NCBI RefSeq assembly: GCF_006345805.1
Contig: NC_043020.1
Coordinates: forward strand, 26,722,001 to 26,786,000
Direction: 5' to 3'
Source of the DNA: Octopus sinensis
Lineage: Eukaryota
Length of the DNA: 64,000 nt
Shown here: in pieces, positions 2,220 through 63,000 of the stretch
Position numbering within the stretch: the stretch's first letter is position 1
Layout: each line of letters begins with the position of its first letter
Notes under the pieces: model-generated
What the model was told of the DNA's origin: nothing
What the model saw: the letters and a program-made list of their open reading frames with translations, nothing else
Databases searched by the model: none
Translations under genes and position numbers: made by a program

Positions 2220-2280
2220 GTGAACAATGCCACTGCCCGTGTTATGACCAAAAAAGCCGTTAACCCCGCAATTCCAAATG
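2220..2280 (+). CDS. Rbfox: Rbfox (Fox-1 family) coding exon: end of RRM, VNNATARVMTKKAVNPAIPN; upstream exons lie outside the window
   Basis: TAG acceptor ends at 2219 and GTAAGG donor starts at 2281. The translation matches the Rbfox RRM C-terminal signature (E)VNNATARVMTxKK. 61 nt, phase 0 in, phase 1 out. Confidence 0.93.
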
Positions 2281-17075: not shown

Positions 17076-17223
17076 CTGCTGCTTTACGAGGTGTGACGTT
17101 GACTCGTGGTCGAGCAGCAGCGGCTGTAACGGCACGAGGAGTATACGCCGCAGCAGCGGCAGCAGCAGCATTCAGGCACCCGACGCCCTTGACAACAACT
17201 GCAGCAGCTTTACCGTACGCCGC
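17076..17223 (+). CDS. Rbfox: Rbfox coding exon, Ala/Arg-Gly-rich C-terminal domain: AAALRGVTLTRGRAAAAVTARGVYAAAAAAAAFRHPTPLTTTAAALPYAA
   Basis: Pyrimidine tract plus TAG acceptor (ends 17075) and GTAAGT donor at 17224. GC-rich island; 148 nt, phase 1 in, phase 2 out, in frame with both neighbours. Resembles the vertebrate AAAYRGAHLRGRGRTVY...PAYGG segment. Confidence 0.9.
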
Positions 17224-19182: not shown

Positions 19183-19240
19183 TGGAGTGTATCACCAAGA
19201 CCCCTTCTTAGCGACATATGCAGCAGCTGATCGATATCAG
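19183..19240 (+). CDS. Rbfox: Rbfox coding exon GVYHQDPFLATYAAADRYQ
   Basis: tttgcctttcag acceptor and CAG|GTAAGT donor at 19241. 58 nt, phase 2 in, phase 0 out. Resembles vertebrate GVVYQDGFYGAD. Confidence 0.9.
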
Positions 19241-19860: not shown

Positions 19861-20564
19861 GTTGATGGACATGTCAAGAATCCCAGACCTGCTTTTTTCA
19901 GTGGACTTGAGCAAATGAGACCAGACACAAAGACATATTGGGTTCACCCAGTCACCTCTTCACCACTTTTTCCAAAGAGAGTAGCCATGTGTCTCCTTTA
20001 CTGCAAGACAACTGTTTCTTTAATTTCTCATTGTCTGTTATGAAGACACCTCCCTCTATACTACACCATTCCTTCACTTGAGGATTTTGTCTTGCTGGTT
20101 ACTTGGTTACCTCACTGGTGCTGCTGCCATAAAAAAATGCATCTCATACCATTCTCTAAAGTGGTTGGCGTTAGGAAGTGCATCCAACTTGCAAAAACAT
20201 TGCGAAAACCAATACTGGAGCTCAATGCATTCCTCAGGGTTATCATCATCGTCATTTAACGTCTGCTTTCCAAACTAGCATGGGTTGAACGGTTTGACTG
20301 TGGGTTGGTAAACCAGATTGTTGCACCAAGCTCCAGTCTTGATCTGGCAGAGTTTCTACAGCTGGATGCCCTTCCTAACGCCAACCACTCTGAGAGTGTA
20401 GTGGGTGCTTTTACATGCCACCGGCACGGGCCAGTCAGGCGTTGTAAAACCATCCAACTCATGCCAGCATGGAAAATCAACATTAGACAATGATGATGAT
20501 GTCCAAGGTATAATTTAAAGGAGATGTGAATGCTATTTCTAGTGGATTAAGTTATAATCTAGAG

Positions 20565-20904: not shown

Positions 20905-21002
20905 CTTGTTACAACCCAGCCATATGCAGCTGCAGGCTATGCGGCTGCAACACGCTATGCAATCCCCACTGTAGCAGCGACAGCAGCCACGTACGCGGCT
21001 GG
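20905..21002 (+). CDS. Rbfox: Rbfox coding exon LVTTQPYAAAGYAAATRYAIPTVAATAATYAAG
   Basis: Long pyrimidine tract plus tttcag acceptor and GTAAGT donor at 21003. 98 nt, phase 0 in, phase 2 out. Tyr/Ala-rich like vertebrate GGYAAYRYAQP..ATAAAY. Confidence 0.9.
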
Positions 21003-23398
21003 GTAAGTTCTATTCTTTTACCATTCTTCCCCTTCTCCCCACCCTGCCAACACTTTTTTTTTCTTGATTATGCTAAAAAAAAAACAAGTTGTTTCCACCA
21101 CTATCACCACTTCCACCCCCACCACCACTTCGACCAGCACCCTTTTCACCATTACCTCGGTGGGGGGGATCCTCACCAATACGAAAATGCTGAAGGACAG
21201 AATTGGGCTGGGGCCCGTGTATCTGTACAAACTATAAGGGAGCACTAGTTTCTCAGTTGATGGAATCAGTAGAGTGACACATATGTCTCTTTTCATCACC
21301 CTGGGGCCATTCTTTTGATCACTGTTGGGAAGAAAATTACTAACTCAATGCTTGGTCTTCAAAGGTCACTTTGTCTACCAAGGATCATTCCACAACTAAA
21401 TTGAGATGACCGAGATCCTGATTAGTTATAGAATGTTAGTTTCAAATTTTTGGCACAATGCCAGGAATCTCAAGGAAGGGATAAATGAACTTATTTCATC
21501 GACCTCCCAAAAAATGAAAGATACTGTCGACCTCAGCAGGATTTGAACTCAGAGCATAAATACGAATGAAAAGCCGTGAAGTATTTTGTCCAGCATGTTA
21601 ATGATTCTGCTAGCTTGCCGCTTTGAGGAATTACAGAATATTGGCAATGCCGCAAATTGTTGTAATTTACCTTGATTATCTTCTCTGAATGCATGAAGGA
21701 CAATGACACCTTCTGCCTTTAAATTGTCATTAAACTGCGACCATGCTGGAGTACTTAGTCTCAACAAATCGACTCTAGTACACGTTTATTTTTAAGCTTA
21801 GTACTTATCCCATCAGTCTTTTTTGCTGAACTGCAAAGTTACAGGGATGTAAACACACCAAACAGACACAAAGACACAAACACATAGATGACTATTCATC
21901 TCTCTCTCTGTCTCTAGACAGGCTTCTTTCAGTTTCCATCAACCAAATCTATTAACAAGGTTTTCGATAGCGACGGCCCAAGGCTATAGTAGGAGATGCT
22001 AGCCCAAGGTGTCATGCAGTAGGGACTGAACCCAAAGCCTTGTAGTTGAGAAACAACTTTCTAACCACACTACCATGCCTGTTTGTTTTATTTTGTTTCA
22101 TATATGTCTATGTGTGTGTGTATATATATAAACATGCATATATATATATATATATAATATATATATATATAATATATATATTATTAACTTCCTTTTCTAG
22201 CAGGTAGGCACCTCACGTGCCCTTATGATATATATATATATATATATATATATGCTTTCGATGCAAGCCTCATTCTTATTTTAGAAGTTTTAATCTGTTC
22301 TTAATAGTTTAGCAAGTAATCTGTCCCCTTTCCCCCTACAATGCATCTGTTGGTGGCGGTGGCAGTAGTGATGGTAGTGGTAATGGTGGTGGTGGTGGTG
22401 GTAGTGGTGGTTTTAGTGGTTCTGCAATTATAGTCTGTTAAACAGTTTGTCAACACACCTCTTTCTCTTCTTTCTTTTTTCCTTAAATTTATGTTTTTGT
22501 TAGTGTTGTTGTTGTTGTTGTTGTTGTCACCTTCTTCCCCCTCCCCCCTGATTCAACTATGTCTCTGTCTGTCTGTCTATGTTTATCTTCAAAATTTTAT
22601 TTTTAATTTTTTTTTTGCCACATTTTTCTTACTTCGTTATTCTCTCTGTCGTTAAGCTGTGATCACTTGTATAAGTGTGTATGTATATAGACATATGTGG
22701 TGTGTATATATGTGTGTATATATATATTCATATATGTATATATAATCATATATACATGCTCATATATGTATAAATATATGCATATATATATATATATATA
22801 TGTATCTATATATGCACACACACATGGATGTGTGTATATATAGATATACACATGTATGTGTGCACATGTGTGTATATATTCATATATACATATCCATATA
22901 TATGTATGAATATACTTATATGCATACATGCTTGCATATATATACACACACATGCTTACATATATGTCTGTATGTATGTATGTTTTGTACAAACACCAAA
23001 TGATTATACTTGCATACATTCCTACGATGTTTGTCTGTAATTAGATAGGTGTGTGTGTGTATATATGTATATATATTATGCTGGCTCATGTTGCTTGCGT
23101 TTAGAAAATATACTTCATTGTTTTCAATTGTTAACCCAACCTTCCACATTCTTGCTTCCTATTACAGTAACTCTCTTTGCCTCCTCAATCTTCTCTCTTT
23201 CTCTCTCTCTCTTTCATTCTCTCTTTCTCTACATCTGTTTCACTCACACCGTACATTACTTCCACCCAACACGCAAACACACAATGCATGATTAAGAGAA
23301 TGAGCCTGAACATTAGTTGTTCATGTCGCTGAAAATAACAGCTAAATCCCCCTCAAGTCTTATGACTGTCTTCTATGCCAAGAAATGGAACACTTTGG

Positions 23399-23435
<37 letters not shown>

Positions 23436-24324
23436 ATTGGAGTATTTATTAAAAAAACAACCACAATTTGATCATAAGCTTCCTCTGTGATGACTAAAAA
23501 GATGAGCTAATTACACATATAAAAACATACTTTTAAATTTACCCTCATCTTGTCCTGTCTTTTCTTATTTCTTGTTCTTGTCCACACTCTTCCCATATAA
23601 CCACTCCTTTTCAGTATCCTTTCACCCATACAATTTCTCAGCTCACAATTCATTGAAAGGTCATAGGGACAACATCCTCATTCATCTCCTCTATAGGGTC
23701 CCTCAGTCATCCCACTTTTTGTTTAGCATTTAAACCAGCCATATCCGGCCAAAAGTATTCTGCCTGTTTTATGTTCAAACTGGCCAGATCTAGTCTCTCA
23801 CACCAACCCTACAATGTCGTTTTAAAAATTAACAGCTACCTCATCAAAATCTCATAGCTACAAGATTAATGAATGATTAGTTCAAAACAATGTGGATGAA
23901 GAAGCATTTGTTTTGGCAGAATAATGCAAACACTAAAGGGTTAAAGTTGTCTAATGAAGTCTTTGGATATTATTATTATTATTATTATTATTATCTGGCC
24001 GTCTTGTTCTTGGGTTACCCTAATGTTTCCTGCCAGTTGGCTCAGCTTGAAGAATCCATCTTGCGACATTTTAATCACATGTCTGTAGGTCTGGAACTCT
24101 GGCATTTCAACACAGGGAAGAAATGGTTCAATCTGGAGAGACTCCTAATCTCCAAACTGCACACCTTGTCAAATAACAGTGCTCCAGAGATCCTTTAGAG
24201 GGATCTCCTTTTGGCCTCTTTCAATCATTAACCATCATTCTTGACCTTAGATGAATACAGGCATCAAAACTGACCTAAAGATAGCAAGTTTAGCATTTTT
24301 ATTACCAACCTCTCCTCTTTTATT

Positions 24325-24720
24325 TTTCACTTGTTTCAGTCATTAGACTGTGGCCATGCTGGAGCATGACTTTGAAATTTTTCTTTTAGTGAAATAAATC
24401 AATCCTAGGACCTATTTTTTCTTTGTAAGCCTCATACTCACTCTGTCAGTCTCTTTTGCTGAACTGCTAAGTTATGGAAACATAAATATACCAATACCAA
24501 TTGTCAAGCAGTGGGGAGGGGACAAACACAGATACAAAGACACACACACACACTCATATATATATGACAGGCTTCTTTCAGTTTCCATTTACCAAATCCA
24601 CTCAGGGCTTTGGTCGGCCTAAAGCTATAGTAGAAGACACTTGCCCAACGTACCATGTAGTGGGACTGAACCTGGACTCATGTGGTTGGGAAGCAAGCAT
24701 CTTACCACACAGCCATACTC
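24325..24720 (-). mobile_element. tRNA-derived SINE, same family as 17391-17760
   Basis: Reverse-complement match: gacaggcttctttcagtttcc...gaagacacttgcccaa...gtgggactgaacc...cttaccacacagcca. Confidence 0.8.
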
Positions 24721-25214
24721 TGCACCTCTTCCTTATTCTTCATAATTTTTACTTCATTTGTCCCTTATTTTTCCTCTTTTTACCTAATCCTTTCCTTTTC
24801 AATCCTCCTCTGCTCCTCCACATCCTTTTACCCCTACCCTTGTCTGAGCCTTTGAAGGAGTAGTAGCCCTTAAATGTAGTTAAGTGGCCTGTCTCTCATT
24901 CATCATTCACCCTCATCAACACATGCTCATTCATCACTCACAACACTCACTCTTCTCTCATTCATCACTCACAACACTCACTCTTCTCTCATTCATCTCT
25001 TCACTCATCTCACTCAACTCCTCATTCATCACTCAATCCACAAGGCTTGAAGTTAATGCAAGACTATGCTAAAAGACGTTTGCCCAAGATGCCAAGATGT
25101 GGGATTGAACTAGGAACCTGATGATTGCAAAGCAATTTTCTTAACCACTCAACTACGCCTTGCATTTGATTAATACTAACAAAGCAACGACTAATAAGAA
25201 GTGGTTTCTATACT

Positions 25215-25780
25215 TTTGGATCTTTCCTCTTCTTTGCCTTCTCTTCATCTTCCTCTTCTTTGCCTTTTCTTCTTCTTCGCCTTCATCTTCTTCTTCTTCA
25301 CCTTCTTCTCCCTCTTCTTCTTTGCCTTCTTTGCTCCCCCCTCCTTCTCCTCCTCATTTCCCTTTTTCTCCTCCTCCCCCTCTGCCTTCTTCACCTTCTT
25401 TTCACCTTTTCCTTTATCCTCCTCCTTCTTTACCTTCTCTTCATCTTCTTCCTCTTCCTCCACTTTGCATTCTTCTTCCTCTTTGCCTTCTTTGCTTTCT
25501 TCACTTTCTTCTGTGCCTCCTCTTCATTTTCATCTTTTGCCTCCTCCTTTTTGCCTTCTTTCTCTTTACTTTCTTTCTCTTTGTCTTCTTCCTCTTTGCT
25601 TTCTTCTTCTTCTTCTTCCTTCATTATCTCCTCCACCACCACCACCACCACTTTTCATGTTGCGCTCCATCAAACTCTCCACTTCTCTCTGCCACCTCCT
25701 CCCTCCCCACCCCTATGTTTCCTTCCTTCCTTCCTTCCTTCCTTCTTCCTTCCTTCCTTCCTCATCTTTCTCTTTCTCTT
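25215..25780. repeat. Polypyrimidine (CTT/CCT)n low-complexity tract
   Basis: About 560 bp that is almost entirely C/T on the + strand. It produces the spurious Ser/Phe/Leu/Pro ORFs. Confidence 0.9.
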
Positions 25781-26022
25781 AACAATTTCACTAACCCTTG
25801 TAACATTTCAAAACTTGGATATTAACCTTGCTAACTTTTCTGTAGTTATTCCTATCCCTGCCCCAGCTTGCAAGGGGCCTTTAGAAGAAAAGAAAGAAAG
25901 AAAACAAAAAAAAAGGAGCTTTTTGGGCTCTGAATTTATCCTCTCTATTTCGTTTAATTAACACCTACATTAATCGCCATCATACACTCCCTAGTATAAG
26001 GCTGTTTGTGCCTTTCTCTCCC

Positions 26023-26060
<38 letters not shown>

Positions 26061-26879
26061 ATTTTCTCTCACTCAACACACACATGCATATACATCCTAT
26101 TTGATGCTTTGTTTCTTCTCCCTCTTCCTTCTTTCATTTCCAAGGTGATGTCTCTGTATGAAACAAGTTTTTCCTTTTCTTTTTGTCTCGTATAATCTAT
26201 GCACTCACGCACACACACACACATACATTTATGTAAGTGCATATAAATATATATGTGTGTGTGTGCATATATTTAGCACATACATACATATATATATATG
26301 CATATGTACATGTGTAAATACATTTATATAGGTATGTATATATATATATATATGCATATATATATATATATATATGTGTGTATATATACATGTATATATT
26401 TATATATATATATAGTATACACATTGTACATACTTATGCATACTTACACATGTACACTCACTGACACACACAGGGCCACATGTTCAGATTGTGCTGTTTA
26501 TCCCCAATTTTTCTGTACATGTTTCACATATTTTTACTGCACTATTTTCCTTTATACACTGCCTATATATATATATATATAGATATATATATTATATATA
26601 TATAATAATGTGGATTATATTTAATATATATACATATATATATATTATCTATGTTATATATATTATATATGTATATATATTATAATTAATATATATATTA
26701 TATATATATTATATATTATATTTAATATATATTTATATTATATTTATAATTATTTTATATATATTATATATGTATATAATTATATTAATTATATATATTA
26801 AGATATTTATATCTTAATTATAATATATTAATTATATATATATATGATATATATAGAATATATATATATGTATATTATG

Positions 26880-26921
<42 letters not shown>

Positions 26922-27884
26922 ATATATTATAATATATTTATATGTATATTATATATATATTATATAATATATTATATAGTAGTAAACTGACATGCAAGCA
27001 TATGAGATGTTTTATTTCAATGGAGCTTAATTTTTTTTTTGTTACATCTTTTCACATCTTGCTTTTAAGTACCCCCCAAATTTCACAACTGCAGCATCAA
27101 CAACAACAACAACTAAACCATTTTACATAGCAAGCAAGCTATTCCAAAACAAAGCACAAAAAGAAATATGCATTTTGTAAATGCCAGTATCGTTCTGTCC
27201 AAGAGAGATCAATTCTTCTTAGAATAATTTTCATAATTATTCTTAAAATTCTTCTTAATTATTTTTCAAAAATTTTTATGGATTTTTTTAAATCAGTTTT
27301 TTTTTCTTTGAGTGCATAATTGCATGTGGTCGTAAAAATTCACACTGCAATTAAATTGTTTCTTGTATTTTTTAAAACAACTTAGAGAATGTGTGTGTGG
27401 GTGTGTGTTTTTGTTGTATATATGTGAGCATATACGTATATATATATGTGTGTGTATATATACATGTATACAATATATATATATATTGTGTATATATACA
27501 TGTATACAATATATTTATATATATATATATATGTATAGTATATGTGCATATGTACATATATATGTATATATATGTATGTGTATATATTATATATATGATA
27601 TATATATCCATATATATATATATAAATATACATATATGCATAATGTTTTACTCTTTTGTCTTTATTTTTATTTAATTTTAATTTGAGAGATTTTCTTTAA
27701 TTTAATATATATCTATAAAATAAAGCTTCCATTTATTTAGTTATTCAAAAAAAAATATTCTATTTTAATTTGCTTCTAAACTAGGTTTAATTTTATATAT
27801 ATATATTTATATATATTTATTTATTTAGATTTTTACTACTTACTTTTGGGGGACTGGAGATGGATATGCTGGTAGTGGTCTAGA

Positions 27885-27942
27885 ATTATTATTATTATTA
27901 TATTATTATTATTAGTAGTAGTATTTTATTATTATTATTATC

Positions 27943-27976
<34 letters not shown>

Positions 27977-27990
27977 CATCATTATTATTA

Positions 27991-28029
<39 letters not shown>

Positions 28030-28075
28030 TACTATTATTATTATTACTATTATTTATTATTATTATTATTATCGT
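27885..28075. repeat. (ATT)n microsatellite
   Basis: Direct inspection. Similar tracts lie at 28840-29030 and 30920-31155. Confidence 0.9.
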
Positions 28076-28084
28076 TGTTGTTAA

Positions 28085-28840
28085 TGCAATGAGCTATCAA
28101 TCGTTAACACACATGGCATATAACTCTTAACAGCATCTTGTCCACCATTTACAAATTCTGCCATGGTTGACGTTGCCTTTCATCCTTTTGAGATCAAGTG
28201 AAATAAATAGTGGTTGAGAGTTAGGGGTCGATGGAAATGACTAGCCCCTCATCACAAATATTAGGCTTTGTGTCTATAGTTGAAAGGATAATTATTATTA
28301 TTACTGCCTACTATTACTACTGCTACAAATATTCTTTTAAAGGTGGCAATTTGGCAGACTCTTTTAGCATGCTGGACAAAATGGTTAGTACCATTTTATC
28401 AGTCTCCATGCTCTAACTTCAGATTCCATCGGGGTTGACTTTGCCTTTCATCCTTTTGGGTGGGTGGGTCAATAAAATAAGTTAGAGCTGAACACTGGAG
28501 GGTCAATATAATCGACTTACCCCCTCCACCAAGTTGCTGGCTTTGTGTCAAAATTTGAAACAATCATCATCATCATCATGATTATTATTATTATTGTCAT
28601 TATTATTATTATTATTATTATTATGACGACCGCGAGCTGGCTGAATTGTTACCATGCCAAGCAAAATGCTTAGCATTATTTCATCTCACTATGTTCTGAG
28701 TTCAAATTCTGCCGAGGATGACTTGGCCTTTCATCCTTTTGTGGTCACTAAATTAAGTACCAGTGGCACACTGGGGTCGATGTAACTGACTCGTCCCCCC
28801 CACCCCAAAATTTTAGTCCTTGTGCCTATAGTAGAAATAA
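28085..28840 (+). mobile_element. Three tandem degenerate Deu/Nin-like SINE copies
   Basis: The gcctttcatccttt...aagtaccag...ggggtcgatgtaa motif is repeated three times. Confidence 0.7.
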
Positions 28841-30324
28841 TAATAATTATTTTTATTATTACTATTATTATTATTATAATTATTATTATTTTATATTATT
28901 ATTACTATTATTATTAGTATTATTATTATTATTTTTATTATTAATTTTTATTATCATTATTATTACTATTATTATTACTACTACTATTATTATTATTATT
29001 ATTATTATTGTTATTATTATTAATATTATTGCTAGTAGTGGTATTCTTACTAAGCTTCATCTACTTCATGTAGGATTATTATATATAAATTTTCATCTAT
29101 GCTTATTTACACCATAAAAAAACATACTCAGTTATGTAAGGTCAGCAAAAGATATTTTACTACACCAATTTACCCTATTTTTATATCCCCATATATAAAC
29201 TAATCCAAGCATAATCCAATACATAAAGTAAGGGAACTCTGATTGTCTCAGTCCACTTGGCTGACAAGAGGTTGAAACAAATTATTAATTATCTCATTGA
29301 CTTATAATAATAGTAAAGGTGAAATGCAACCAGTGTGTGTGTTCTTATTGACACAATGATCCTCCTGAGACACAACAGAATATGTTTCAATACATTTCAT
29401 AGTGAGAATCTAAATGAATACTCTCCATCAAAAATTTCTATCTTAATTTATATCATAAACACCAACATTCTGCTGAAATGTTAATTATTTAATTCACATT
29501 GTTTTGAATTAATCTTGCATTATCTTGTAGCTATCAGATGAAGTAACTAAGATTTTAGGATGATATTGTGGGGCTGGTGTAAGAGGCCACATCTGGCCAG
29601 TTTGAAAATAAAACAGATGGGACATTTTGGCTAAAGGGTTAATGACAGTTATTTTAGTAACCCTTTGGCCTTTAACCCTTTTGTTACCAACCCGGCTAAA
29701 ACCGGCTCTGGCTCTGTAGTACAAATGTCTTGTTTTCAGAATTTTTGAATTAAAATCTTCTGCCAAACCTTAGTCACAATTTATGTTCCCAACTCTAGCT
29801 TAATGATAAATAAGTTATTTTACTAAATTCTTTGTTATATTAGTCATATCTGGCTCAAATATCCTGTTTTGTGTTCAAACAGGTTAGATTTGCTTCTCAT
29901 GTCTGCCCCACAATCTCATTCTAAAAATAAACACCCAGATTATGAAAATCTCAACACTACGAGATAATGCAGGATTAATTCAAAAACAGTGTGAATAGAT
30001 AAGCATTACATTTGGCAGAGGAATCTAGATGCTGAATGGTTAAATTAGTACGGTGCCATTTTAACATATGAGTTAATAATCTTTTTATACTGGAATTTAA
30101 ATCGAGACTTTTATCACCTCTCACTCACAATATCTTTAAGTTCTAGCATAAGGAAAACTAACATAAGAATTAAACAAAAAATAAAGATGGCTTTGTTATC
30201 TTTTGCCCAGCAAGGCCTAACTGAAAACGTGGTGTGGATTATAAGGCTATTATCGCTGAAGATATGCAGCATAATTCCAAAGAGCCAATCTGCAAGGGCA
30301 TTGGTGTTCCTGATAAATAATTAA

Positions 30325-30573
30325 AGGGCACATAAAAAGCACCATCCGTTCGTGGCCGTTTGCCAGCTCTGTCTGGCTCCAGTGCGGGTGGCACGTAAAA
30401 AGCACCCACTACACTCACGGAGTGGTTGGCGTTAGGAAGGGCATCCAGCCGTAGAAACACTGCCAGATTTGACTGGGCCTGATGAAGCCTTCTGGCTTCA
30501 CAGACCCCAGTAGAACCGTCCAACCCATGCTAGCATGGAAAACGGACGCTAAACGACGATGATGATGATGATG
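30325..30573 (+). mobile_element. Retroelement/SINE 3' end with a (GAT)n tail
   Basis: Same family as 7243-7397, and a less diverged copy. Confidence 0.8.
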
Positions 30574-30917
30574 ATAAATAACAAACATAAAATTATGATT
30601 CTTTCTGAAGAATAAGGAGTTTTTTTTTTCCTCCACTTTATGCTTCTTATATTACTAATTATCGTAGCTTGTGACTCCATGCATAGCTTTAAAAAATATG
30701 ACATGAATTTATATTATTTCGATACTCTAAAAATAACAAGTATTATTTGATATTGATAAATGGCCTGGCCTTGCCTTGCGGTATTTGTTACAGCTCTTTA
30801 CTTTCTGAGTTCTGTTCCTGCCAAAGTCAATTATGCCTTTTCTTGTTCTGGGGCTGATATAAACGACTAACCTTCTCCACTCAAAATTGCAGGCCTTGCA
30901 CCTTAAACTGAAATCCA

Positions 30918-30949
<32 letters not shown>

Positions 30950-30976
30950 TTGACATAATATTATTGCTACTACTGC

Positions 30977-31055
<79 letters not shown>

Positions 31056-31457
31056 GTGACATAATGTTGCTACTACTGCTACTATTATTATTATTATTAT
31101 TATTATTATTTTATAATTATCACCACTACTATTACTACTACTTCTACTATTACTACTTTTTTTCATATATATTTATATATATATATATAGCCTTGTGTGT
31201 GTATGTATATATCTATATATATACATATACATATATATGTATATATATATACATATATATATATACATGTGTATATATATATATATATATACATACACAT
31301 ACACACATGTGTACTTAGACATATAATTATATATGTATGTATACATACATATGTCTGTGTGTATGTATGTATATATATGTATATATGAGTATATATATGC
31401 ATATATATATGTATATATGTGTATATATATGTATGTATATATGTATATATATGTATG

Positions 31458-31503
<46 letters not shown>

Positions 31504-31612
31504 ATATATATATATATATATGTATGTATATATGTATATATATATATGTATATATATTATGTATATATATATATATATATATGATATATATGTATATATA
31601 TATATATGTATG

Positions 31613-31643
<31 letters not shown>

Positions 31644-31732
31644 ATATGCATAAGTATGTACACGTTTTTTTTTCCTACTTCTGGTGGCTATAAGCTAAAA
31701 CATTGTGGCTGATGATCTCTTGTTTGAGGTTC

Positions 31733-31908
31733 TGCATGAGTTACAATAAATTTTGCTGCTCTGCCTGCATGTAGTGGGTTTGTTTGGTGACCCATCAGTT
31801 GCATGTCTTACAGGTATGGCAGGGAGTATGCGGCAGACCCCTATTTGGGACACAGTATCGGACCAGTCACCGGATATGGGGTAGGTCTTCCGTTTCAATC
31901 CCAGCATG
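31733..31908 (+). promoter_or_regulatory. Cluster of Rbfox binding elements (U)GCAUG around the 67-nt exon
   Basis: TGCATG at 31733-31738, 31766-31771 and 31800-31805 (8 nt before the exon start), plus GCATG at 31904-31908. All lie in non-microsatellite sequence. Confidence 0.8.
31814..31880 (+). CDS. Rbfox: Rbfox penultimate coding exon YGREYAADPYLGHSIGPVTGYG (probable cassette exon)
   Basis: ttacag acceptor and GTAGGT donor at 31881. 67 nt, phase 2 in, phase 0 out. Matches the conserved YGRVYAADPY motif of Rbfox proteins. Confidence 0.92.
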
Positions 31909-32023
31909 CTTGTGTGCCTTGTCTCTTCACTATTACTTTTTATATACACACATATATATATATTTATATAATATATATTTATATACACATATATATATAT
32001 ATATTTATATAATATATATATAA

Positions 32024-32060
<37 letters not shown>

Positions 32061-32332
32061 TATGTATAGTATATTTTTTTTTCTGCTAGATTAAAAATAT
32101 TGTAGATGTTGTGTTTTAAAGTTTGCTTGCTGCCAACCCATAGCCTAAAATATTTTATATGTATTTAGGTGCTTTTTTCGGAAAGGCATTTAATATTTTC
32201 CAATTTTGTTTTTTTATCTAAAGAAAAAAAAAAAAGAAAAAATACTTTAAGCAAAAGAAAAGAAAAAAAGAAAGAAAAACAATCCAAAATTGGGCAAAAA
32301 TGACCTGAAAATTATTATTATTATTCTCATTA

Positions 32333-32363
<31 letters not shown>

Positions 32364-35000
32364 ATTATTATTATTATTACTATTGTAATCGTATTGTTCT
32401 GTATTTTATCACTGTTTATTGCTGCATTGAATGAAATTGTTTTTCTTATTTCTTTAGTTTCTCATCATCATCATCATCACAATCATCGTCATCACCATCA
32501 TTGCAATCATCATCGTCATCATCATCATCTTTCATCCTTGTCAAAACCAAATTGTTTTCCAATTTTTATGAACAGAAATGATATTATATTCATGTTCTCT
32601 CTCTCTTTCTCATTCTCTCTCTCACTCTCTCTCTCTCCCTTTCTCTCTCTCTCTCCCTCTCTACCTATTTATTTATCTCTATCTCAAAATTTTCAGGTGT
32701 ATTCGTTAAAATGTTTTACTAAAACTTATCTTCATTAACAAAAAAGGAAAAAAAAATTTACTTCTTTCTTTTAAGCCAGCACTATTAATTTTTTACTTCG
32801 TTAATACATGTATATTTATTTTTGGTTAATTAAATCGACTTAGTAAATTATTTTTAGTTCCAAAAATTCAAATTAAGTACAACCAAGAATTAACTATCAT
32901 TTGTAACCTAAGTACAAACCCTCAGAATTATAGATGGTTTCATTATCATATCATCATCAATCCGTTTTTCCATACTGGCATATGTTGGACAGTTTGACAG
33001 GGGCTGAGCAGCTGAAGGGCTGTCCAGACCCCATGTCTGTTTTGGCATAGTTTCTATGGCTGGATGCCCTTCTTAACACCAACTATTGTACAGAATGTAC
33101 CAGGTACTTTTACACCGCACTGGTACGAGTGTTTTGTTTTTTTTATGTGGCACCAACAGAGTTACAGTTCTTCAATAGAATTCGCCTCAATACTTTTTAT
33201 TTACTCTGCCGCCCCAGAATGGTAAAAGACAAAGTTGACTGTGGCAAGGACTGAACTCAAACTGCTGAAAACGATAACGGATTCTTGCAAAGTATTTTGC
33301 TGACCTTCTCACAGTTCTGCCAATCCAGAATACTTTGTCTCTGTTGGGCCAGTGCTAGGAAAACAAATTAGACCTTTAACATCCAGACTATTCTGCTTAA
33401 TTATTCACATTGGTTTGAAAGATTTCAAGCATAACATTGTGGGGTAGATGTGGGAGGCTAGATCTGGTCAGTTTTAACACAAAACAGGTAGAATAGTTTG
33501 ACCAGATACAGGCCAGTATAAACCATGGGTTAAGGTGGGGGTAAAGACAGGTTGACTCTGACTAAGCAGATTTAAGGCCCAGAGGGTTTCCAATCATGAA
33601 CATCCCTTCTAACGCATACTTTAACAAAGACTTCATAATCCAGTATCCCTTTTTGTTGCTTACTTTTTTTGTTTTGTTCTTTTTAACTTTTTAGCCCTCA
33701 GATTAATCTCTCAAATATATTGCTTATTTATTCACATTGTTTTGAATTAATTATGCATTATTCCATGCTTAAAGATTTCGGTGATGCGATTATTTTTAGA
33801 ATGACATTATAGGGTAGATGTAAGAAGCAGGATCTGGCCAGTTTGAACATAAAATGGGCAGAATAGTTTGACCAGATATGGGCCAGTTGAAATGTGAAAG
33901 GGTTAATATTGAATTTTGATGGTAGGTTTTGGCCCTTCAGCATTCAGATTAGTCTGAAATGTAATGCCTATTTATTCACATTGTTTTTAATTAATCATGG
34001 CTTATCTCATAGCTTTGAGATTTCAATGATGTGATTCTTTATTTTTAGAATGACATTGTAGGGTAGGTGTATATATATATATGTATATATATGCGTGCAT
34101 GTATGTTTGTGTTTGTTCCCCTAGCATTGCTTGACAACCGATGCTGGTGTGTTTACGTCCCTGCCACTTAGCGGTTCGGCAAAAGAGACCGGTAGAATAA
34201 GTACAAAGAATAAGTCCCGGGGTCAAGTTGCTCGACTAAAGGCGGTGCTCCAGCATGGCTGCAGTCAAATGACTGAAAGAAGTAAAAGAGTAAAAGAGAG
34301 AGAGTATATGTGTGTGTGTGTGTGAATGTATGTAGTTGCACACTCACACGCATTCATACCGTTGCATATTTTGTTTTGTGTGCATTGAAGTCGAAGGCAT
34401 AACTGCATTATACAACATAAAACTTGTGAATAACCTCATTATTTAATTGAAAGTAAAGGTTTTGATAGTCTCCTACATTTGGTTTGAGGTAACATACATC
34501 ATGGATATCTGTGCTTATACACACACACATTTATTCTTGAATATAAACCATAAAGCATGCATCTAATATGCATTTATATAGATGCATATATATATATATG
34601 TATGTATATATAATATATGTATATAAATTAGAGAAGAACCACCATATATATATATATATATATATATAGCCTTATTAAATATTTATTTTATGCTTTATGT
34701 TTAGTCATAAATTCTAAAACATATATTCTTGTAGGTACCATATTATTATTTTTTTTACTTTGTTGTTATTAATTTAAAATATATACATTATATATTACTG
34801 TTATTTTCTCTAAAATACATTACACTTTATGTATGTGTACACGTGCCTATGTGTGGGAATCAAATTGATGCCCCACATAATAATAATAATAATAATGATA
34901 ATAACAACAATTATTATTATAAAGATACATATATATGTATATACATACATAGATGCACATATATACATACCCTCTGTATACGTACTTCTCATTTGTTTAT

Positions 35001-35070
<70 letters not shown>

Positions 35071-36992
35071 ATGAGACCTTTTTAATATGAAATGCATTTT
35101 TCAAAACACTGAAATAAAACAGTTACCAAATAGTAATAGCAAACAAAAAGGAAAAAAAAGAAATTAAAAACCAAATAATAAAATGTCACAAAATAGAAAT
35201 ATTAACTTTTATTCTACAACCCAAAAACATTAAAATACACCTAAAATCATGATATGGTATGTATATATTGTATGTATATATATAGTATGTATATATATAT
35301 TTATATGTGAGCAGAAACATAAAAATACAGAAAGGGCATTAATGTACAGCTATAACCATTTTCCCACAAAAAAAAAAAAATAAATAAATCCCCAAAATAT
35401 GTAGACTAACAAAAACTTAAAAAATTTTAAAAAGCAACATAGGATTTCAAACTAGGGTATTTTTTATACATTCTATAAAATGTATTAATCTCTTTCTCTC
35501 GCGCTCTCTAACTTTAAAATAAAAAAGTTTTGAAATTAAATATAAAACTATTATATATTTTAGGCTCTGTAAAAAAAAAATAATAAAATAAAAAATAAAA
35601 AGCTAAGAGGTTTCAAGGGAAATTTAGAAAAAAAAAAATTATCAAAAAAGACGGCAAAATATTGGAATAAAAGAGGCTGGGGAATAATTCTGTTTGTTTC
35701 TGATGTAGGAATTTTGAAATTCTTGCACAAACTCTATAAGCAAAGCTGATTTATTCAAATGCCTTTTGGCTCTGAAAGAAAATTGCCCCTCCTCCCACCA
35801 CATTTATGCTCATATGCATAATTATATGCTATTAGAATAAAAACAAATATGCATACATACATGTGAATTTATATATGTGTTTGTGTGAGTGCATATAAAA
35901 ATATATATATATATGTATGTGTGTATGAATATGCACGTCTATATGTATATATATATATATATATGGACTTACAGATATGGTGGTTGTCTGCTCTTTATGT
36001 CTATATCTATATAGGTTATGAGAGGTAATGGTGTCATTGAGACCCAAAGGTGTCAGGTAATGCTGAATAAGTGCTATAGATGGACCATGGTTAAGTTCCA
36101 GGTTTGGTGATTATGCGAATAGGGGTTCAACATTGGTCATATGTCAGCATGTGTATATAACATTTTTTTTTTTAATGAGATAAAAAAAATTCAAGGCAGT
36201 GTAGATTTTTGAACATTTATAGATAGAAGGTCTTACAGCTGTTTCAAGGATATTTATTAATTATCATCGGAGACGGTGTGAGAGGATGGTTAAGAAATAG
36301 TTCATTTAGATAAGATACAAAATAGAGAGTGAGGTGGAGGAAATCTATTTTCTTTTCTTTCCTCCACATCACTCTCTATTTTATAAATGTTCTATCTTTA
36401 AATGTTCTAAAATCTACACTGCCTTGGGTTTTTTTATCTCATTACAAAAAAAAATTATATATTTACAAATATATATATATATATATCATTGCTATTATGC
36501 AAAAGTATTGCAAGTGTGAAAAGCTAAACGCGAAACCGGTCTTTCTCCTGAATTATGTCATTATAAGAGAAAAAAATTTTTTTAATATTCTTCAAAAAAA
36601 TTCTTTAATATTCTTCAGACATATTGATGCAAATATATATTTTTTAACATTTAAGCCTTCTGTAGTTTTTTCACTTTTTACTATTTTCTATATATTCAAC
36701 CACGTGCTTTCACAAACCAACTTTCTTATCTATATATATATATTCATATATATATATAGATATCCTGACACAGAGGTGCCATGCAAAAAGCACTGGCAAC
36801 ATGGTTAGATCAGATCTTAAATTTTTAATCAAAATCTTCAGGTTTTGAGTTCAAACCCTACTAACCTCAACTTTGCTGTTCATCTTTCTGGGATTAACTA
36901 AAAATAATTCCATTTTTAAAATCTCAAAGCCACAAGAAGATAATTCATGATTAATTCAAAACAATGTGAATAAATAAACATTACATTTGACT

Positions 36993-37315
36993 GAGGTGTG
37001 TGGCTCAGTGGTTAGTGCATTCAGCTCATGATCGTAAGGTCATGAGTTCAATTCCTGGTGATGTGTTGTGTCCTTGAGCAAGACACTTATTTTGTATTGC
37101 TCCAGTCTACTCACCTGGCAAAAATGAGTAGTACCTGTAATTCAAAGGGCGGGCCAGGTCACATTCTGTGTCATGCTGAATTTCCCCATGAACTACGTTA
37201 AGGGTACACATGTCTGTGGAGTACTCAGCCACTTGCTTGTTAATTTCACGAGCAGGCTGTTCCATTGATAAAATTAACTGGGACCCATATCAGTATAACC
37301 GAAGAAGGGTCAGTT
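36993..37315 (+). mobile_element. tRNA-derived SINE with Meta-like domain, inserted in a MITE remnant
   Basis: A-box TGGCTCAGTGG, B-box GAGTTCAATTCC and gtgtccttgagcaagacactt. The sequence acatttgac flanks both sides. Confidence 0.8.
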
Positions 37316-38582
37316 TTACATTTGACAAAGTAATTTGAATGCTAACAGGTTAAAAGTTGGTGTGTTAGCAACATTGTTAGATCATATTTTAATATTTGAT
37401 CTGAATCCTTGGGTTTCAAGTTCAAATACTACTGACCCCATACTTTAATGTTCATCTTTCTGGGATCAACTAAATCAAAATATGAATAAAAGTGCTGGGG
37501 CCAATTTACATTAGTAATCCCATCTCCTCAAATCTGTGACCTTGTCTAAGAAATAATTACTATAATTAAAAGCTTTCTTTAATCAACCAATTAGTATTTG
37601 CAAATTTTTGCTGTTGATTTCTACAATTTTTTTGTTTTGTTTTTCTCTTTTTTATTTTCTGTTTTATTATTTTTTTAACTGGCTTTAAATGATATAACCA
37701 AAGAATGCTGGCTGTGTAGAATATATTTTTGTTTTGTTTCTGTTTATTTTTATCTATCAATTATTAATTAATATATATACATATATATATTTAACATTTT
37801 GGCAAGCAAGCAAGCAATGCAATGCAACCTTACAATTTAAATTTTTTGATAATATTCTTTTCTTTTTTGTCTAAGTCTTAAGAACCATATTTATAGTCAT
37901 TCATGTTCACTATTTGTCATCTTAATATAGGCTAATGTGATTATTATTATCATTATTATTATTATCATTATTATTATTATTATTATCATTATTATTAACA
38001 AGAAAATAGCATAAATATTGTGAATTTCAGTTTTGCTAAGCAGCATGACATTATTATTATCATCATCATCATCATCACCCCCATTAATTTTATTATAATT
38101 ATTATTATTATATTATTATTATTAAGGTGGTGAGTGTGCAGAATCATTAGCAGGCCAGTGCTTAGGGGCATTTCGACCGTCCTTACGGTCTGAATTCAAA
38201 TTCTGCCGAGGTTGATTTTGCCTTTCATCCTTTTGAGGTCGATAAATTAAGTACCAGTGAAACACTGGGGTGTCGACGTGATCAATTATTTCTCTCTCAC
38301 CAAATTTCAGGCCATGTGCCTATAGAAGAAAGGATTATTATTATTATTATAATTATTTTTATTATTAAGGTAGCAAGCTGGTAGAGTCGTTAGCAAGCCA
38401 AGCAAAATGTTAGTGGCATTTTGTCCGTCTTTAGATTCTGAGTTCAAATTCTCCTGTGGTCGACTTTGTCTTTCATCCTTTTGAGGTTGATAAAATAAGT
38501 ACCACTTAAGTACTAGGGTCGATGTAATCAACTAGTCCCCTCCCTCCAAATTTCAAGGAGAAAGGATCATTATTATTATTAT

Positions 38583-39030
38583 TGAGTGAGAGAGCAGTGC
38601 ATGCCATCAAAGTATACCCATCATGACTACCCAGCTAATAAGGGTACACCAGGCACATGCATCACAACCATTTGTGCACGGCATAGTGATCTCATATCAA
38701 GATTAACAGCACATGACCCTGCAGGTGGGGCTTAGTTAGAATTTTATTCAGGTCAAGTAGCCCATCCTGACTCAAATGGCCCTTCGATAAGGGTTATTTA
38801 AGGATGTTGAATGAAACACCCATGTTTCCAGAGGTGAATTATCCATACCCCAGAGAATTTCTTTCAACACATGGCTATGATGCTCCCTTACTATTTCTGC
38901 TCATGGTCAGATGCACATATCATTAGCCACCAAGGGACATACTAAACTGGTTAAGGTCAAACAACTGACAAGCAGTTTGTGGTATTGAACAGAATAGTTA
39001 TTGAAGCCAGCTTTTATACCAAGATAAAAC
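38583..39030 (+). mobile_element. Interspersed repeat; an inverted partial copy lies at about 40645-40952
   Basis: gagtgagagagcagtgcatgccatc...catgtttccagaggtgaatt matches the reverse complement of 40680-40952. Confidence 0.7.
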
Positions 39031-39934
39031 ATATACAAATGAACATGTAGACATAGCTGTGTGGTTAGAAGCCTGCTTTCCAACCACTTTGTTCTGGGTT
39101 CAGTCCCATTGCATATCACAATAGGCAAGAATTTTCTACTATAACCCTGGGCTGATCAAAACCTTTTGAGTGGATTCGGTAGATGGAAACTGAAAGAAGC
39201 CTGTTTTGTGTTTGTGTGTGTGTATACACATATATATATTTTTTTTGTCTGCCACTACTGCTTGATATCCTGGGTTTGTGTTTGTCACCTTAATTTAGCA
39301 GTCTGCGAAAACTGATCAATGGAGCAGAATAAGGTCAAGTTTAAAAAAAATTAAGTATTAGAGTTGATTTGCTTGACTAAACCTTTTAAGGTGGTGATCC
39401 AGCATGGCTGCAGTCCAATGATTGAAACCAGTAAAGGATAAAAAAAAAAAGTGATTAGGCATTCATTAGTTTTATTTTTTATTTTCTTCACAGAATTTAG
39501 TTAATTAGATTTTTCTTTTGTTGTCTTTTTTTAAATTATATTCGCTTTTACTTTCATACATCATTTTGCCAACTTATCACTAACAAACTCTGCATTATTT
39601 AATTTGTGTCTGTCTGTGTGTCCCTGCATTTGTGTGTTTTCCTTTTGATTAATTATATTTTTTTTCTTGATTTCCCCATTTGTCTTTCTCTTCTCTACAT
39701 GTCGGTGAGATCGGCAGAATCAGCAGATAGGCAGTAGCAGAGGCGATGGACAAAACACTTCGCAGTGTTTCATTACATCGCTCTTGTTACATCTTCATTT
39801 TCCTACTTTTAAATCAAATCACAATTATTGCCTTTCATCCATCAAAAGGAGATGGTAAAATATAGTACCAGACTGTCGGTTTTCTAAAAGTACTGGGGTT
39901 TTGTGCACCAATGATTAAATTGAGCGATTGAAGT

Positions 39935-40645
39935 TTTTAAAGAAGTGGAGTGGTCACTTTAATGATGGAAATTAGAAAAAAGAAAGAAGGAAAGAAATTT
40001 GAGGGTTTGAATAATTGAAAGAAGTGGAGTGGTCACTTTAATGAAAGAAATTTTGGGGTTCGAATAATTCACCTCTGGACTGTAATTTTTAAAGAAGTGG
40101 AGTGGTCACTTTAATGATGGAAATTAGAAAAAAGAAAGAAGGAAAGAAATTTGGGGGTTTGAATAATTGAAAGAAGTGGAGTGGTCACTTTAATGAAAGA
40201 AATTTTGGGGTTCGAATAATTCACCTCTGGACTGTAATTTTTAAAGAAGTGGAGTGGTCACTTTAATGATGGAAATTAGAAAAAAGAAAGAAGGAAAGAA
40301 ATTTGGGGGTTTGAATAATTGAAAGAAGTGGAGTGGTCACTTTAATGAAAGAAATTTTGGGGTTCGAATAATTCACCTCTGGACTGTAATTTTTAAAGAA
40401 GTGGAGTGGTCACTTTAATGATGGAAATTAGAAAAAAGAAAGAAGGAAAGAAATTTGGGGGTTTGAATAATTGACCTCGGGACTAGTTTTTAAAGAAGTG
40501 GAGTGGTCACTTTAATGAAAGAATTTAGAAAAAGGAAAGAATGAAAGAAATTTTGGGGTTTGAATAATTCACCTGTGGATTGTAGTTTTTAAAGAAGTGG
40601 AGTGGTCACTCTAATGATGGAACTTAGAAAAAAAGAAAGAATTTT
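39935..40645. repeat. Higher-order tandem repeat: three 152-bp dimers plus two monomers of about 98 bp
   Basis: Core AGAAGTGGAGTGGTCACT starts at 39941, 40020, 40093, 40172, 40245, 40324, 40397, 40494 and 40593. Confidence 0.92.
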
Positions 40646-41613
40646 TGAGCATCATAGAGAGAAATTCTTTGCAGTTTGAAAAATTCATCTCTGGAAACAT
40701 GAGTGTTTTATTCAACATCCTTAAACAACTCTTATTCAAGGACCTTTTGAGTGGAATGGGCTACTCAACTTGCAGAAAATTCTAACTGGTACCCACTTCC
40801 AAGGTCAGGCACTGTTTGTCATGATATGAGATCACCGTATTGTGGACATATGGTTGTGATACATCAGACAGGTAGTCATGATGGATATATTGGGCTTTGT
40901 AAATTTGTACCCCAGTGTCATATCGATGGCATGCACTGCTCTCTCACTCAATGATGATAATAATAAAATACATGGTTCTTGAAATAGAGGTCTCAAAAAT
41001 GACAACTGTTCCAGTGATCATGAGAGCTTTGGGGATAATGGCACTCTTGAACTCTGGTCTAGTACGGAACTATAAAAAATTCTTCTTATGGGTACAGTTC
41101 ACACCCTAAGGAAGCTGGCTCTAAATTCAGTTGGAAATTTATTGAGATGCACTTAATTTTGTAAAGTGGTTGATATTAGGAAGGGCATCCAGCCATGGAA
41201 ACCATGCAAAAACAGATGTAGGAGCTTCATGCAGTTTCCTTTCAAATCATCCATGGACGAGTAATATTAGATGCTGATGGTTATGATGATACTTATCTGA
41301 CATGGCTATGGGGTTAGAAAAAGTAGTTTTGCACAAATTCTTTAATCTTTTCTCTATAACAACCATTGCATTTTGGTCTTCCATTCCTGGTTGGAAGTTA
41401 CCATTATCAAAACACAGTATCACTCGTGAAATTTGTAAAGCTTAAAGTGTGTCTATGTCTGGTATATATTTTACTGTTCCTTCTTCATCAAATGGTTGAC
41501 TAAGTTCATCTGGGTTACAACTCAATATTGTGTAATTGCTAACACCTTTATTATTGTTATTTGAAAATTAAATTTTTTTTGAGTTTTATCATCTCTGTTT
41601 TCCACTGTTGCAG

Positions 41614-41658
41614 GCTACTGTTTACAGGGGTGGTTACCAGCGGTTTGCACCATACTGA
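41614..41658 (+). CDS. Rbfox: Rbfox terminal coding exon ATVYRGGYQRFAPY* (PY-type nuclear localisation signal)
   Basis: ctgttgcag acceptor and TGA stop at 41656-41658. Near-identical to the canonical Rbfox C-terminus YRGGYxRFAPY. Confidence 0.95.
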   Translation, partial: ATVYRGGYQRFAPY

Positions 41659-41765
41659 GGTCACGTGAGTACGTTGCTATGAAGCGGATGGCAAGAAACT
41701 CTTTTTTCCTGAATCTGACAGCAAGACAGGCTGTCTGATTTTTTTTTATATAAAACAAATAAGTT

Positions 41766-60050: not shown

Positions 60051-63000
60051 TCTGTAGCCCTGCCCCCTACTCCTATCTCTAATGTCCATTATTTTATTTA
60101 TTTTTTTTTTGTTATTGTTGTCTTTGAATGTGTATGAAAGTCTTGTGTTTGCAGACAGCTTGTTTCTCATTTTTTTTTTTCGGAATGGGCTTTTTGGGAA
60201 TGTTATATATATATATATATATATAATGTATGTGTGTATATATATAATATATATATACATATATATATATACTTATATGTTTTTCTAGTTGTTTAGTCTG
60301 TTTTAGCCATCACGGCTACGGTCATGCTGGAGCACTTATATAAATATGTATGTGTATGTATATGTCTATAATATGCGTTTTCAATATATATATCTCTGCA
60401 TTGTGCATGACTGATTTTTTTGTAATGAAAAACATGCAAAAAAAAAAGATTTTTCATTGATGCATAAACAAAGAAAAAAAATAAAGAGAATGGATTTAAA
60501 AAGAGAAATAATAAACATTTAAAAAAAACAGAAAACAAGTGTTTGGTGCATGATTTGTTATTAGACTTGTATATTTCGGGGTCACCCATTAAGAACAAGG
60601 ACTTGAAACCAAATAAACTTCACAAAAAAAAAAAAAATGATGCAAGCAGCATAATTAAAAGTGACCCCTTTGCAAATTGCATGTGTATGTGCTAATATTG
60701 TAATTAATGCCGGTCTGATTATGAGTTACAAAAACAACCTAAAGTACAAAAAAAAAATCATCTTACTACTGTTTTTCTTTTATTAAAATCTTGAATAAGG
60801 GGCATGTTTTTTTTTTTAATCTATGATTTTAAATGTCTTATTGTTCTTGGTTTGAAAAAATAAAAAAAAAAACCCAAAAGTAACAGGTTGCCTGTGGAAT
60901 GGTGGGGCTCAGTTGTCTTGCTATGATGTTATCAGCATTATTATTATTATTATTACTCATCATTTATTTATTTTTATTTTTCAAGTCGAATCTCATTTTT
61001 ATTGTTTTTAATTTTTGGTTTTTTTTTGCAATTTAGAAAACAAACAAAATATAATAACAAGGAAAGAAAAAAAATAGAAAAATAATTTTTAAAAATTCCC
61101 AACCAAAACCAAGATTATTATTGTTTGCATGTACACACACACACACACTATATATATATATATATATATATAGTATATATATATACTTACCAACACACAT
61201 GCGCTGATGAATGATTTTGCTATTTTGTAATATTTGTTGGTCTGAAAAAAAAAAACAAAAAAAATCAAACCTTTTGCTTGAATTGAACTTGTATATAATT
61301 ATGTGGAAAACTTGGAGAAGGAGGTTGTTTACTGCTGCAAATTTAATTAGTTAATTAATGATAATTAATGTAGAAATTAATGTAGAATGCTCTTTACTTA
61401 TTCTAGTTTCACCGTAAAGCAGTTTGAAAAATTTAATAGATTAGATTTAAATACAATGATGAGATGAATTAAAATATTCATAGAAATTATAATTAATTTT
61501 ATTATTAATGTCTTAATTTTGAAGAAAATCCTTATTAGTCAATTAATTAAAAAAAAAAAAATTATATTCGTCACAGCTTTTTATTTCTCTGTTCCTAAAC
61601 TTTAGTGTCCCTGCATTGTACATGTATGTATATATATATGTAATATTCAGATTTTGTGACCTTACAGTTAGGATGCTGTTTCTGAGAGTTAACCATAACC
61701 TTCAGAGATCACAATGTCTGTGTGATAAGGAAAAATCAGTGAGCCAACTGTAAAATTGAAAATCTGAGTAAATGAATATATATATATACACACATATATA
61801 TATACATACATACACGCAAGCTCTATATTTAAATTATACTGAGTTCTATAATGAAAATGAAGAATAGCAATTTATTCTGTTGCAGTCTATTTCTGTCTGC
61901 TCCCATCATTATTATTATTATTATCACTATTATGATTATTATTATTATTATTATTATTATTTCGCTCTAGCATTTTTTGAAACACTTTCAATCTTTGAGC
62001 AAAATCTACAATTGTTGTCTTTCCGTGTTTACAAACAGCCTCCTTTCCAAATGAATGCTATATATATATATACATATACATATATATATATATATATACA
62101 CACACAACACATGAATGACATGAAATGTAATTGTGCTGTAGTAATGTGGAGCATGCTATCTCTTGAAAATGAAATGAAAAAAAAAACAAACTGCATTTTT
62201 TTCTTGATTGTATATTTTTCTGGTTTTTTTGAGCAATGCCTCCTGTTTTTATTTGTTTTATTTTTGGCCTGTTTATAGTTTGTTGGAATGTTTGTACATT
62301 GAATGAACAGCTAGTCTTGAAGGAAATAATGGACTAAAAAAATCACACACATGTCCCTTGCCTGAGACGTGCATGCATGCATACACACCCCCCATGTATG
62401 TATTGTTATGTTAGGGACCTTATAAATACAAGCAGCATGCACATGTATACACCCATATTTATATAAAAATATATATAAATCTCTATGTATATATGACATG
62501 CATTAGATGTATATCATATATACATTATATGTGCATTTATATACATGAAATTATACATACATGTGAACAGAAGTATACACACACACACACATACGATATA
62601 TATATATTTATAAAGTAGAAACACTTATACATGTATATTCGTTAAGGATCTTGAATGTTCTTTTTGTTCCCCCATGGGTTAAAATGGATTAATTAACTCT
62701 TAATTTGCAAGCAGACCCTAAAATCATGCAGTCCCCCCAAAACTCACAAATTTGCTTTCAGTTTCTTATCAAAACTATCTCCTGGAAACCCCCAAACTCT
62801 ATTCAGCTTTTACTAACCAACATACATTTTTTTTGTTGTTTTTTTCAGGAAGGGGTAGGTGGAATTTAATGATTTAATGCCCTGTTTATTCCCCTACAAA
62901 GTGAAGGGATTAGTAATTTCTCAGTCAGCAACATAGTGTTAAAATTTGGGTCTTTGCTATTTCATTTCTCTCTGCCCCCATTCCCCCAACCACCACCACC

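Follow-up and report, generated by a model that had tools for sequence, protein, structure and literature searches.

A candidate second autoregulatory switch in the octopus Rbfox gene: UGCAUG motifs clustered at the exon that sets the frame of the nuclear localization signal

In the portions of the published accounts on which we draw throughout, binding of Rbfox to (U)GCAUG upstream of an exon represses that exon (PMC2777236). In calcitonin exon 4, a site at -34 blocks SF1 at the branch point and a second site blocks U2AF65 (PMC2777236), and Fox-2 exon 6, which has three UGCAUG elements upstream and one downstream, is an established case of negative autoregulation (PMC2777236; PMC3126832). The C-terminal RF(A/T)PY motif is the hPY-NLS of the Rbfox family (PMC2777236), and both frameshifted Fox-1 forms and NLS-less Rbfox3 are described as mostly cytoplasmic (PMC2777236; PMC3126832). 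Rbfox1 is reported to shift the splicing of its own exon 19 in favor of the nuclear form (PMC5478600, citing Lee 2009). In mammals and flies, cytoplasmic Rbfox governs the stability and translation of mRNAs (PMC5478600; PMC8595405), and the splicing of the C-terminal frame determines its share; in the fly, cytoplasmic Rbfox1 isoforms act on 3′ UTRs (PMC8595405), and exons 7, 12, 14/15 and 17/18 of the gene are alternative (PMC8742874). In a search confined mostly to non-subscription literature, we found no report of the splicing of a cephalopod Rbfox gene or of autoregulation of the 67-nt exon considered here, and none of autoregulation of its fly counterpart.

The window analyzed here, a stretch of 64,000 nucleotides of octopus DNA, contains the 3′ part of a gene whose nearest named proteins are the Rbfox proteins of Octopus bimaculoides, O. 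vulgaris and Argonauta. The RRM of human RBFOX1 matches the O. vulgaris orthologue with an E value of 1.5e-45, and together with the named homologues this bears out the first-pass annotation, which had taken the gene to be Rbfox. A single Fox-type RRM is present; its exons lie upstream of the window (in L006, L005 and L003), apart from the one at the RRM end, and the octopus protein presumably binds (U)GCAUG, as its RRM would predict. When one RRM exon was used as a query it had a single match in the genome, and octopus probably has one Rbfox gene. Given this single match, the regulator of any exon discussed below would be a product of the same gene.

The penultimate coding exon is bordered by an acceptor AG and a donor GT. 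When it is included, the protein ends in ...YGREYAADPYLGHSIGPVTGYGATVYRGGYQRFAPY and translation stops at 41656-41658 in the last coding exon, directly after RFAPY, the family's C-terminal NLS. When it is skipped, the frame of the last exon shifts, RFAPY is lost, another tail is gained and translation stops at 41666-41668. Translation of both forms agrees with the first-pass proposal that the exon is 67 nt long and that its loss causes a frameshift that removes RFAPY. Both stops are in the last exon, the skip stop 10 nt beyond the normal one; the two forms should therefore share NMD status, and the accompanying proposal that the skip form escapes NMD holds in this simple form. Counterparts of the peptide that the 67-nt exon encodes align in amphioxus, insects and molluscs as well as in mammalian RBFOX1 and RBFOX2; judged by these alignments, the exon is old.

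Several observations on the C-terminal region stand apart from the question of skipping. At IGPV(T/A)GYG within the 67-nt exon, cephalopod-like proteins differ between Thr and Ala (P0008 and P0132 on one side, P0005, P0131 and P0133 on the other), an A-to-G-type change that is either a species difference or RNA editing. In-frame inserts of 17-41 residues occur between the 67-nt and last exons in two cephalopod-like proteins, abalones and a nemertean (P0005, P0126, P0107, P0176 and P0196), and mammalian RBFOX1 has an insert there too; the 17-residue insert of P0005 and P0126 has no counterpart in the intron at 31881-41613. In three Lineus and Biomphalaria models (P0304, P0312 and P0279) the NLS is lost via other 3′ ends and the 67-nt exon is kept. 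The last intron also holds a 152-bp tandem array of 3.6 near-identical copies plus decayed ones (39934-40642), and 20250-20510 is taken up by an interspersed repeat of high copy number that is also abundant in RNA-type assemblies.

Table 1. Coordinates of the features discussed, numbered from the first letter of the window
Feature	Position	Strand	Remark
Coding exon, RRM end	2220..2280	+	mapped in window
Coding exon, Ala-rich region	17076..17223	+	mapped in window
Coding exon GVYHQDPFLATYAAADRYQ	19183..19240	+	aligns to mammalian VYQD block; no flanking motif
Upstream coding exon	20905..21002	+	donor for inclusion and skip junctions alike
Island between (TA)n tracts	31648..31940	+	single-copy; 31698-31940 98% identical in organism H
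TGCATG motif 1	31733..31738	+	-81 from 67-nt exon; unchanged in organism H contig
TGCATG motif 2	31766..31771	+	-48 from 67-nt exon; unchanged in organism H
Candidate branch point	31787..31791, A at 31790	+	inferred from sequence
Upstream AG	31797..31798	+	use would add 5 residues in frame
TGCATG motif 3	31800..31805	+	within weak pyrimidine tract; unchanged in organism H
Penultimate coding exon, 67 nt (3n+1), YGREYAADPYLGHSIGPVTGYG	31814..31880	+	sets PY-type NLS frame; spliced in RNA contigs
Downstream GCATG	31904..31908	+	+24 from 67-nt exon; unchanged in organism H
Last coding exon	41614..41668	+	junction 31880->41614 in contig X18

Three TGCATG motifs lie within 81 nt upstream of the 67-nt exon and a GCATG lies downstream of it (Table 1). 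This number of upstream motifs is above chance, as dinucleotide shuffling of 31660-31813 produced three TGCATG 6 times in 20,000 (frequency 3e-4). Motif 2 is followed at once by TAG. The last base of motif 3 is 8 nt upstream of the exon, and this motif lies between the candidate branch point and the AG; A31790 is a candidate by the UnA consensus. The acceptor itself is poor in pyrimidines, with a fraction of 0.59 at -20..-4 (joint lowest among the gene's acceptors listed) and a longest pyrimidine run of 4 (shortest among those listed). The surrounding island is bordered by (TA)n tracts at 31165-31647 and 31941-32074 and has a single match genome-wide. The first-pass annotation had given the positions of all four motifs, described the island as unique between its (TA)n tracts, seen the third motif as replacing the polypyrimidine tract and noted no such cluster at the window's other five exons; each of these points was borne out, the third being a fair description of the acceptor, and none of the five exons has (T)GCATG within 100 nt.

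Clusters of at least three motifs within 80 nt were counted on both strands of 264 kb of the locus. There are seven, and the one at the 67-nt exon is the only one that touches an exon; the other six touch no mapped exon and are more microsatellite-like, with purine/pyrimidine alternation of 0.70-0.91 vs 0.60. Separately, the stretch at 60404-61131, 19 kb beyond the stop codon, is AT-rich and non-tandem and contains five motifs (four TGCATG, one GCATG), of which the first four are spaced at 125-145 nt; it is possibly distal 3′ UTR or another target.

Eleven coding exons of the gene were mapped, the 5′ edges of three N-terminal ones being approximate, and TGCATG lies within 100 nt of two of the 11, namely the 67-nt exon and a 93-nt RRM exon (L003:8278-8370) located 11.6 kb upstream of the window. 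The probability that two flagged exons among 11 would coincide so by chance is 0.18. The flanks of the 93-nt RRM exon (L003:8269-8377, equal to G000:C24:26710269-26710377) carry one TGCATG right before the acceptor CAG and a second overlapping the donor (GAG/GTGCATG), which is the weakest donor listed. This exon is absent from 13 of 323 RRM-spanning homologue models, which come from bivalves, gastropods, a brachiopod and an annelid and include no cephalopod. As the counterpart of mammalian Fox-2 exon 6, it is a useful internal control. Since motifs occupy both splice sites of this RRM exon, the 67-nt exon would be a second switch and not a replacement. The earlier claim that the regulated exon differs from the vertebrate RRM exon and A53 stands for the 67-nt exon, and falls short in that motifs also flank the gene's own RRM exon.

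Our preferred reading, held with moderate confidence, is that the 67-nt exon is mostly included and is repressed by Rbfox, giving negative feedback on nuclear Rbfox. The three UGCAUG elements over the weak 3′ splice site are likely bound by Rbfox and likely repressive, and Rbfox on motifs 2 and 3, which flank the candidate branch point, would block SF1/U2AF loading. High nuclear Rbfox would then lead to some skipping, presumably as a minor or tissue-restricted outcome. The resulting protein would retain the RRM together with most of the Ala/Tyr-rich region but lack the PY-type NLS; by analogy with the NLS-less forms cited above, it is predicted to be cytoplasmic. Because skipping removes the NLS here, whereas inclusion does so for A53, repression would amount to negative feedback on nuclear Rbfox, acting beside the RRM-exon switch in the same gene.

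The skip tail predicted from the first-pass proposal exists in annotation. All seven C-terminally complete O. bimaculoides models that we saw (XP_014775169-174 and XP_052832196) end in it exactly. Reading on into the intron gives an immediate stop after YAAG, and two cuttlefish models end at this stop. Since intron read-through stops at once, the spliced, shifted ending of the O. bimaculoides models suggests transcript support, given how annotation pipelines behave. Among the models of this species that we saw, none is an inclusion model, and the all-skip set could also fit an exon missing from the assembly, lying as it does between (TA)n tracts. The exon is included in O. vulgaris, Argonauta and further cephalopod-like proteins. 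Among the 348 proteins listed, 310 carry it (large isoform sets from mussels, oysters, abalones, a limpet and a chiton among them), seven have the skip tail and 31 are fragments or have other ends; none of the 348 shows the skip tail outside O. bimaculoides, and a search with the tail found no other species. The shifted-frame pattern of the last exon was found, among 492 proteins, in the seven O. bimaculoides models and in two others in which the shift starts earlier.

In RNA, the exon is included in five of five RNA-type assemblies (X15-X18 and X20) and no skip junction was found in them; these assemblies were selected for holding the exon, for four of the five the RNA origin is a guess, and contigs drop minor forms. 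Contigs X15 and X18 join 21002 to 31814, X18 also joins 31880 to 41614, and X16, X17 and X20 match, among the matches listed, three letters past the donor, in agreement with inclusion but not with skipping. The ends of the skip junction 21002->41614 are 20.6 kb apart and could not be aligned directly, and such alignment is also swamped by interspersed repeats. Inclusion is the main form in the sampled assemblies, and skipping is a candidate only.

These transcripts and models also bear on a reading in which Rbfox binds the motifs and either stalls removal of the upstream intron or brings into use the AGs after motifs 1 and 2, lowering Rbfox through retained or premature-stop transcripts. The TAG after motif 2 is a possible upstream acceptor that would bring a premature stop, and it follows its motif as CAG follows the motif before the RRM exon; acceptors at 31741 and 31775 would lead to stops 11 and 4 codons on, well upstream of the last junction, and read-through into the intron stops at once after YAAG. 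Transcripts of this kind would be expected to be scarce in assemblies and gene models, which matches what we observe. However, the contigs examined show neither retention nor use of the acceptors at 31741 and 31775, and the O. bimaculoides skip models would go unexplained unless they are artefacts. We regard this reading as unlikely, although it survives better than the others considered below.

Conservation of the motifs was assessed at two distances. Of two DNA-type runs aligned to the island, X8 gave no contig over it and X13, from organism H, gave one contig over 31698-31940 (depth 4.2) that differs by 3 substitutions and 1 gap over 243 nt and has all four motifs intact. One base change falls in the candidate branch point, at 31789, the n position of UnA. 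The island or part of it is present in 20 of 24 runs listed; apart from labels A and B, which include the possible sources, organisms C-I (seven, H included) hold 0.50-0.58 of its words, and exon-only RNA-type runs hold 0.19-0.23. The differences in organism H predict a share of 0.51, so the other organism labels at 0.50 may be similar. In organism H the intronic part of the island has 3 substitutions in 176 nt vs 25 in 283 nt of another intron piece that is only possibly orthologous (p 0.001). No significant extra constraint on the 67-nt exon was found in organism G, with 0 differences in 69 nt vs 5 in 135 nt of flanking exons (p 0.17). RNA structure and an editing duplex were rejected as causes of conservation: the fold of 31700-31930 has a z score of -1.36, and 21 of 200 shuffles were equally stable; the best complementary partner in 20901-46000 was no better than E 0.8, and two contigs had no A>G in the exon.

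For distant lineages, 37 loci were collected by scanning metagenome contigs with a sequence pattern. Sixteen were dropped (spliced, intron-less, or one chance hit), and the 21 with an intron before the exon, their acceptors chosen by eye, fall into 11 groups. GCATG occurs within 120 nt upstream of the exon in 4 of these 11 lineages (p 0.027 vs local background), namely in L022, in one group (5 of its 8 loci), in L034 and in L055, which has two motifs. The triple cluster is absent from all 11, and seven have no motif at all in the 120 nt upstream; the triple has so far been seen only in the window species and organism H. On conservation of TGCATG in relatives, which the first-pass annotation had set as a check, the picture is mixed: the motifs are intact in the one relative read by letter, and none of the 11 distant lineages has the triple. 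In L022 a TGCATG lies ~32 nt upstream of the exon, and L055 has GCATG pairs on both sides of it.

The absence of the triple from all 11 distant lineages is among the points in favor of a reading in which a constitutive exon carries motifs of little effect, the island being kept because the octopods compared are closely related and an assembly gap accounting for the O. bimaculoides models. Inclusion in five of five RNA assemblies and in 310 of the 348 proteins listed points the same way, as does the frequency of triple clusters in the locus, about one per 75 kb of strand. Against this, the shuffle frequency is 3e-4 and the cluster sits on a splice site of Rbfox itself, the sole other motif-flanked exon is the RRM exon, and the intronic part of the island has fewer substitutions in organism H than the possibly orthologous intron piece (3/176 vs 25/283, p 0.001). 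We judge this reading improbable and rank it after the one that invokes retention.

The motifs might also choose between tandem acceptors at 31799 and 31814, which would make an in-frame change of 5 residues and leave the NLS untouched. The AG 15 nt upstream is in frame and motif 3 lies between the two acceptors, and candidate tandem in-frame acceptors 15-18 nt apart are seen at the orthologous exon in L022, L043, L054, L055 and L057. However, the longer form is in no cephalopod protein or contig seen (contigs X15 and X18 among them), and the upstream AG lies just 7 nt past the candidate branch point, which leaves this choice very improbable. Least probable of all is that Rbfox promotes inclusion through the downstream GCATG or the whole cluster, a positive feedback locking the nuclear form: organism H retains the GCATG at +24, inclusion prevails in samples that express Rbfox and mouse nuclear Rbfox1 is reported to favor its own nuclear isoform (PMC5478600), but three of the four motifs lie upstream, on the repressive side, and Fox-2 exon 6, with the same layout of three plus one, is repressed.

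The cluster is real, non-random and locally conserved, and is most likely a second autoregulatory element of the gene. If Rbfox does repress the 67-nt exon as we prefer to read it, an animal with a single Rbfox gene and a large nervous system would use direct negative feedback, exerted on an ancient exon, to keep its nuclear and cytoplasmic Rbfox in balance, a clean example of convergent regulation. A bolder version, which we offer tentatively and consider doubtful, is that octopods evolved a second Rbfox switch, in which excess nuclear Rbfox is converted, through a silencer of three UGCAUG, into a stable cytoplasmic regulator of 3′ UTRs. The exon concerned appears to be included invariably in other molluscs. 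Octopods would so have arrived independently at the nuclear/cytoplasmic split of mammalian Rbfox, differing from mammals in the exon used and in the opposite (negative) sign of the feedback. For annotation, the lack of the NLS in all O. bimaculoides models seen is either biology or assembly error.

Compared with described systems, the octopus exon shares with Fox-2/RBFOX2 exon 6 its location in the regulator's own pre-mRNA, the three UGCAUG upstream plus one downstream, and the predicted repression. It differs in that exon 6 is in frame and its skipping removes half of the RRM (giving a dominant negative), whereas skipping of the 67-nt exon, which is out of frame, removes the NLS; the description of exon 6 as an in-frame second half of the RRM fits the separate 93-nt exon. 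The mammalian VYQD block, which we take to be RBFOX2 B40, aligns to the octopus exon at 19183-19240, which has no flanking motif. RBFOX2 B40 (exon 10) is, like the 67-nt exon, a 3n+1 C-terminal exon whose loss shifts the C-terminal frame, and it too has Rbfox sites upstream, with eCLIP peaks, but it is paired with a mutually exclusive exon, M43 (PMC5577181; bioRxiv 10.1101/2025.10.28.685214). Calcitonin/CGRP exon 4, where UGCAUG near the branch point blocks SF1 and a second site U2AF65, offers a model for motifs 2 and 3, although it belongs to a target gene without autoregulation and its second site is exonic (PMC2777236). With Fox-1/RBFOX1 A53 (exon 19), which is reported to be regulated by Rbfox1 itself, the likeness is a C-terminal frameshift that removes RFAPY and yields a cytoplasmic isoform (PMC2777236; PMC5478600). 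In A53, however, inclusion of an extra cassette causes the frameshift and removes the NLS, and Rbfox1 favors the nuclear form, whereas in octopus inclusion keeps the NLS and skipping removes it; the 67-nt exon aligns with the YGRVY..DPY block common to mammalian RBFOX1 and RBFOX2 and with no RBFOX1-specific insert. Drosophila Rbfox1 resembles the octopus gene as a single invertebrate gene with cytoplasmic isoforms (PMC8595405; PMC8742874). The peptide of the 67-nt exon is present in fly isoform M, and the fly may already use a counterpart of this exon, in which case the novelty would be lower. Rbfox control of its own exons, frame-shifting C-terminal ones included, is known in mammals; what differs in octopus is the exon and the predicted sign.
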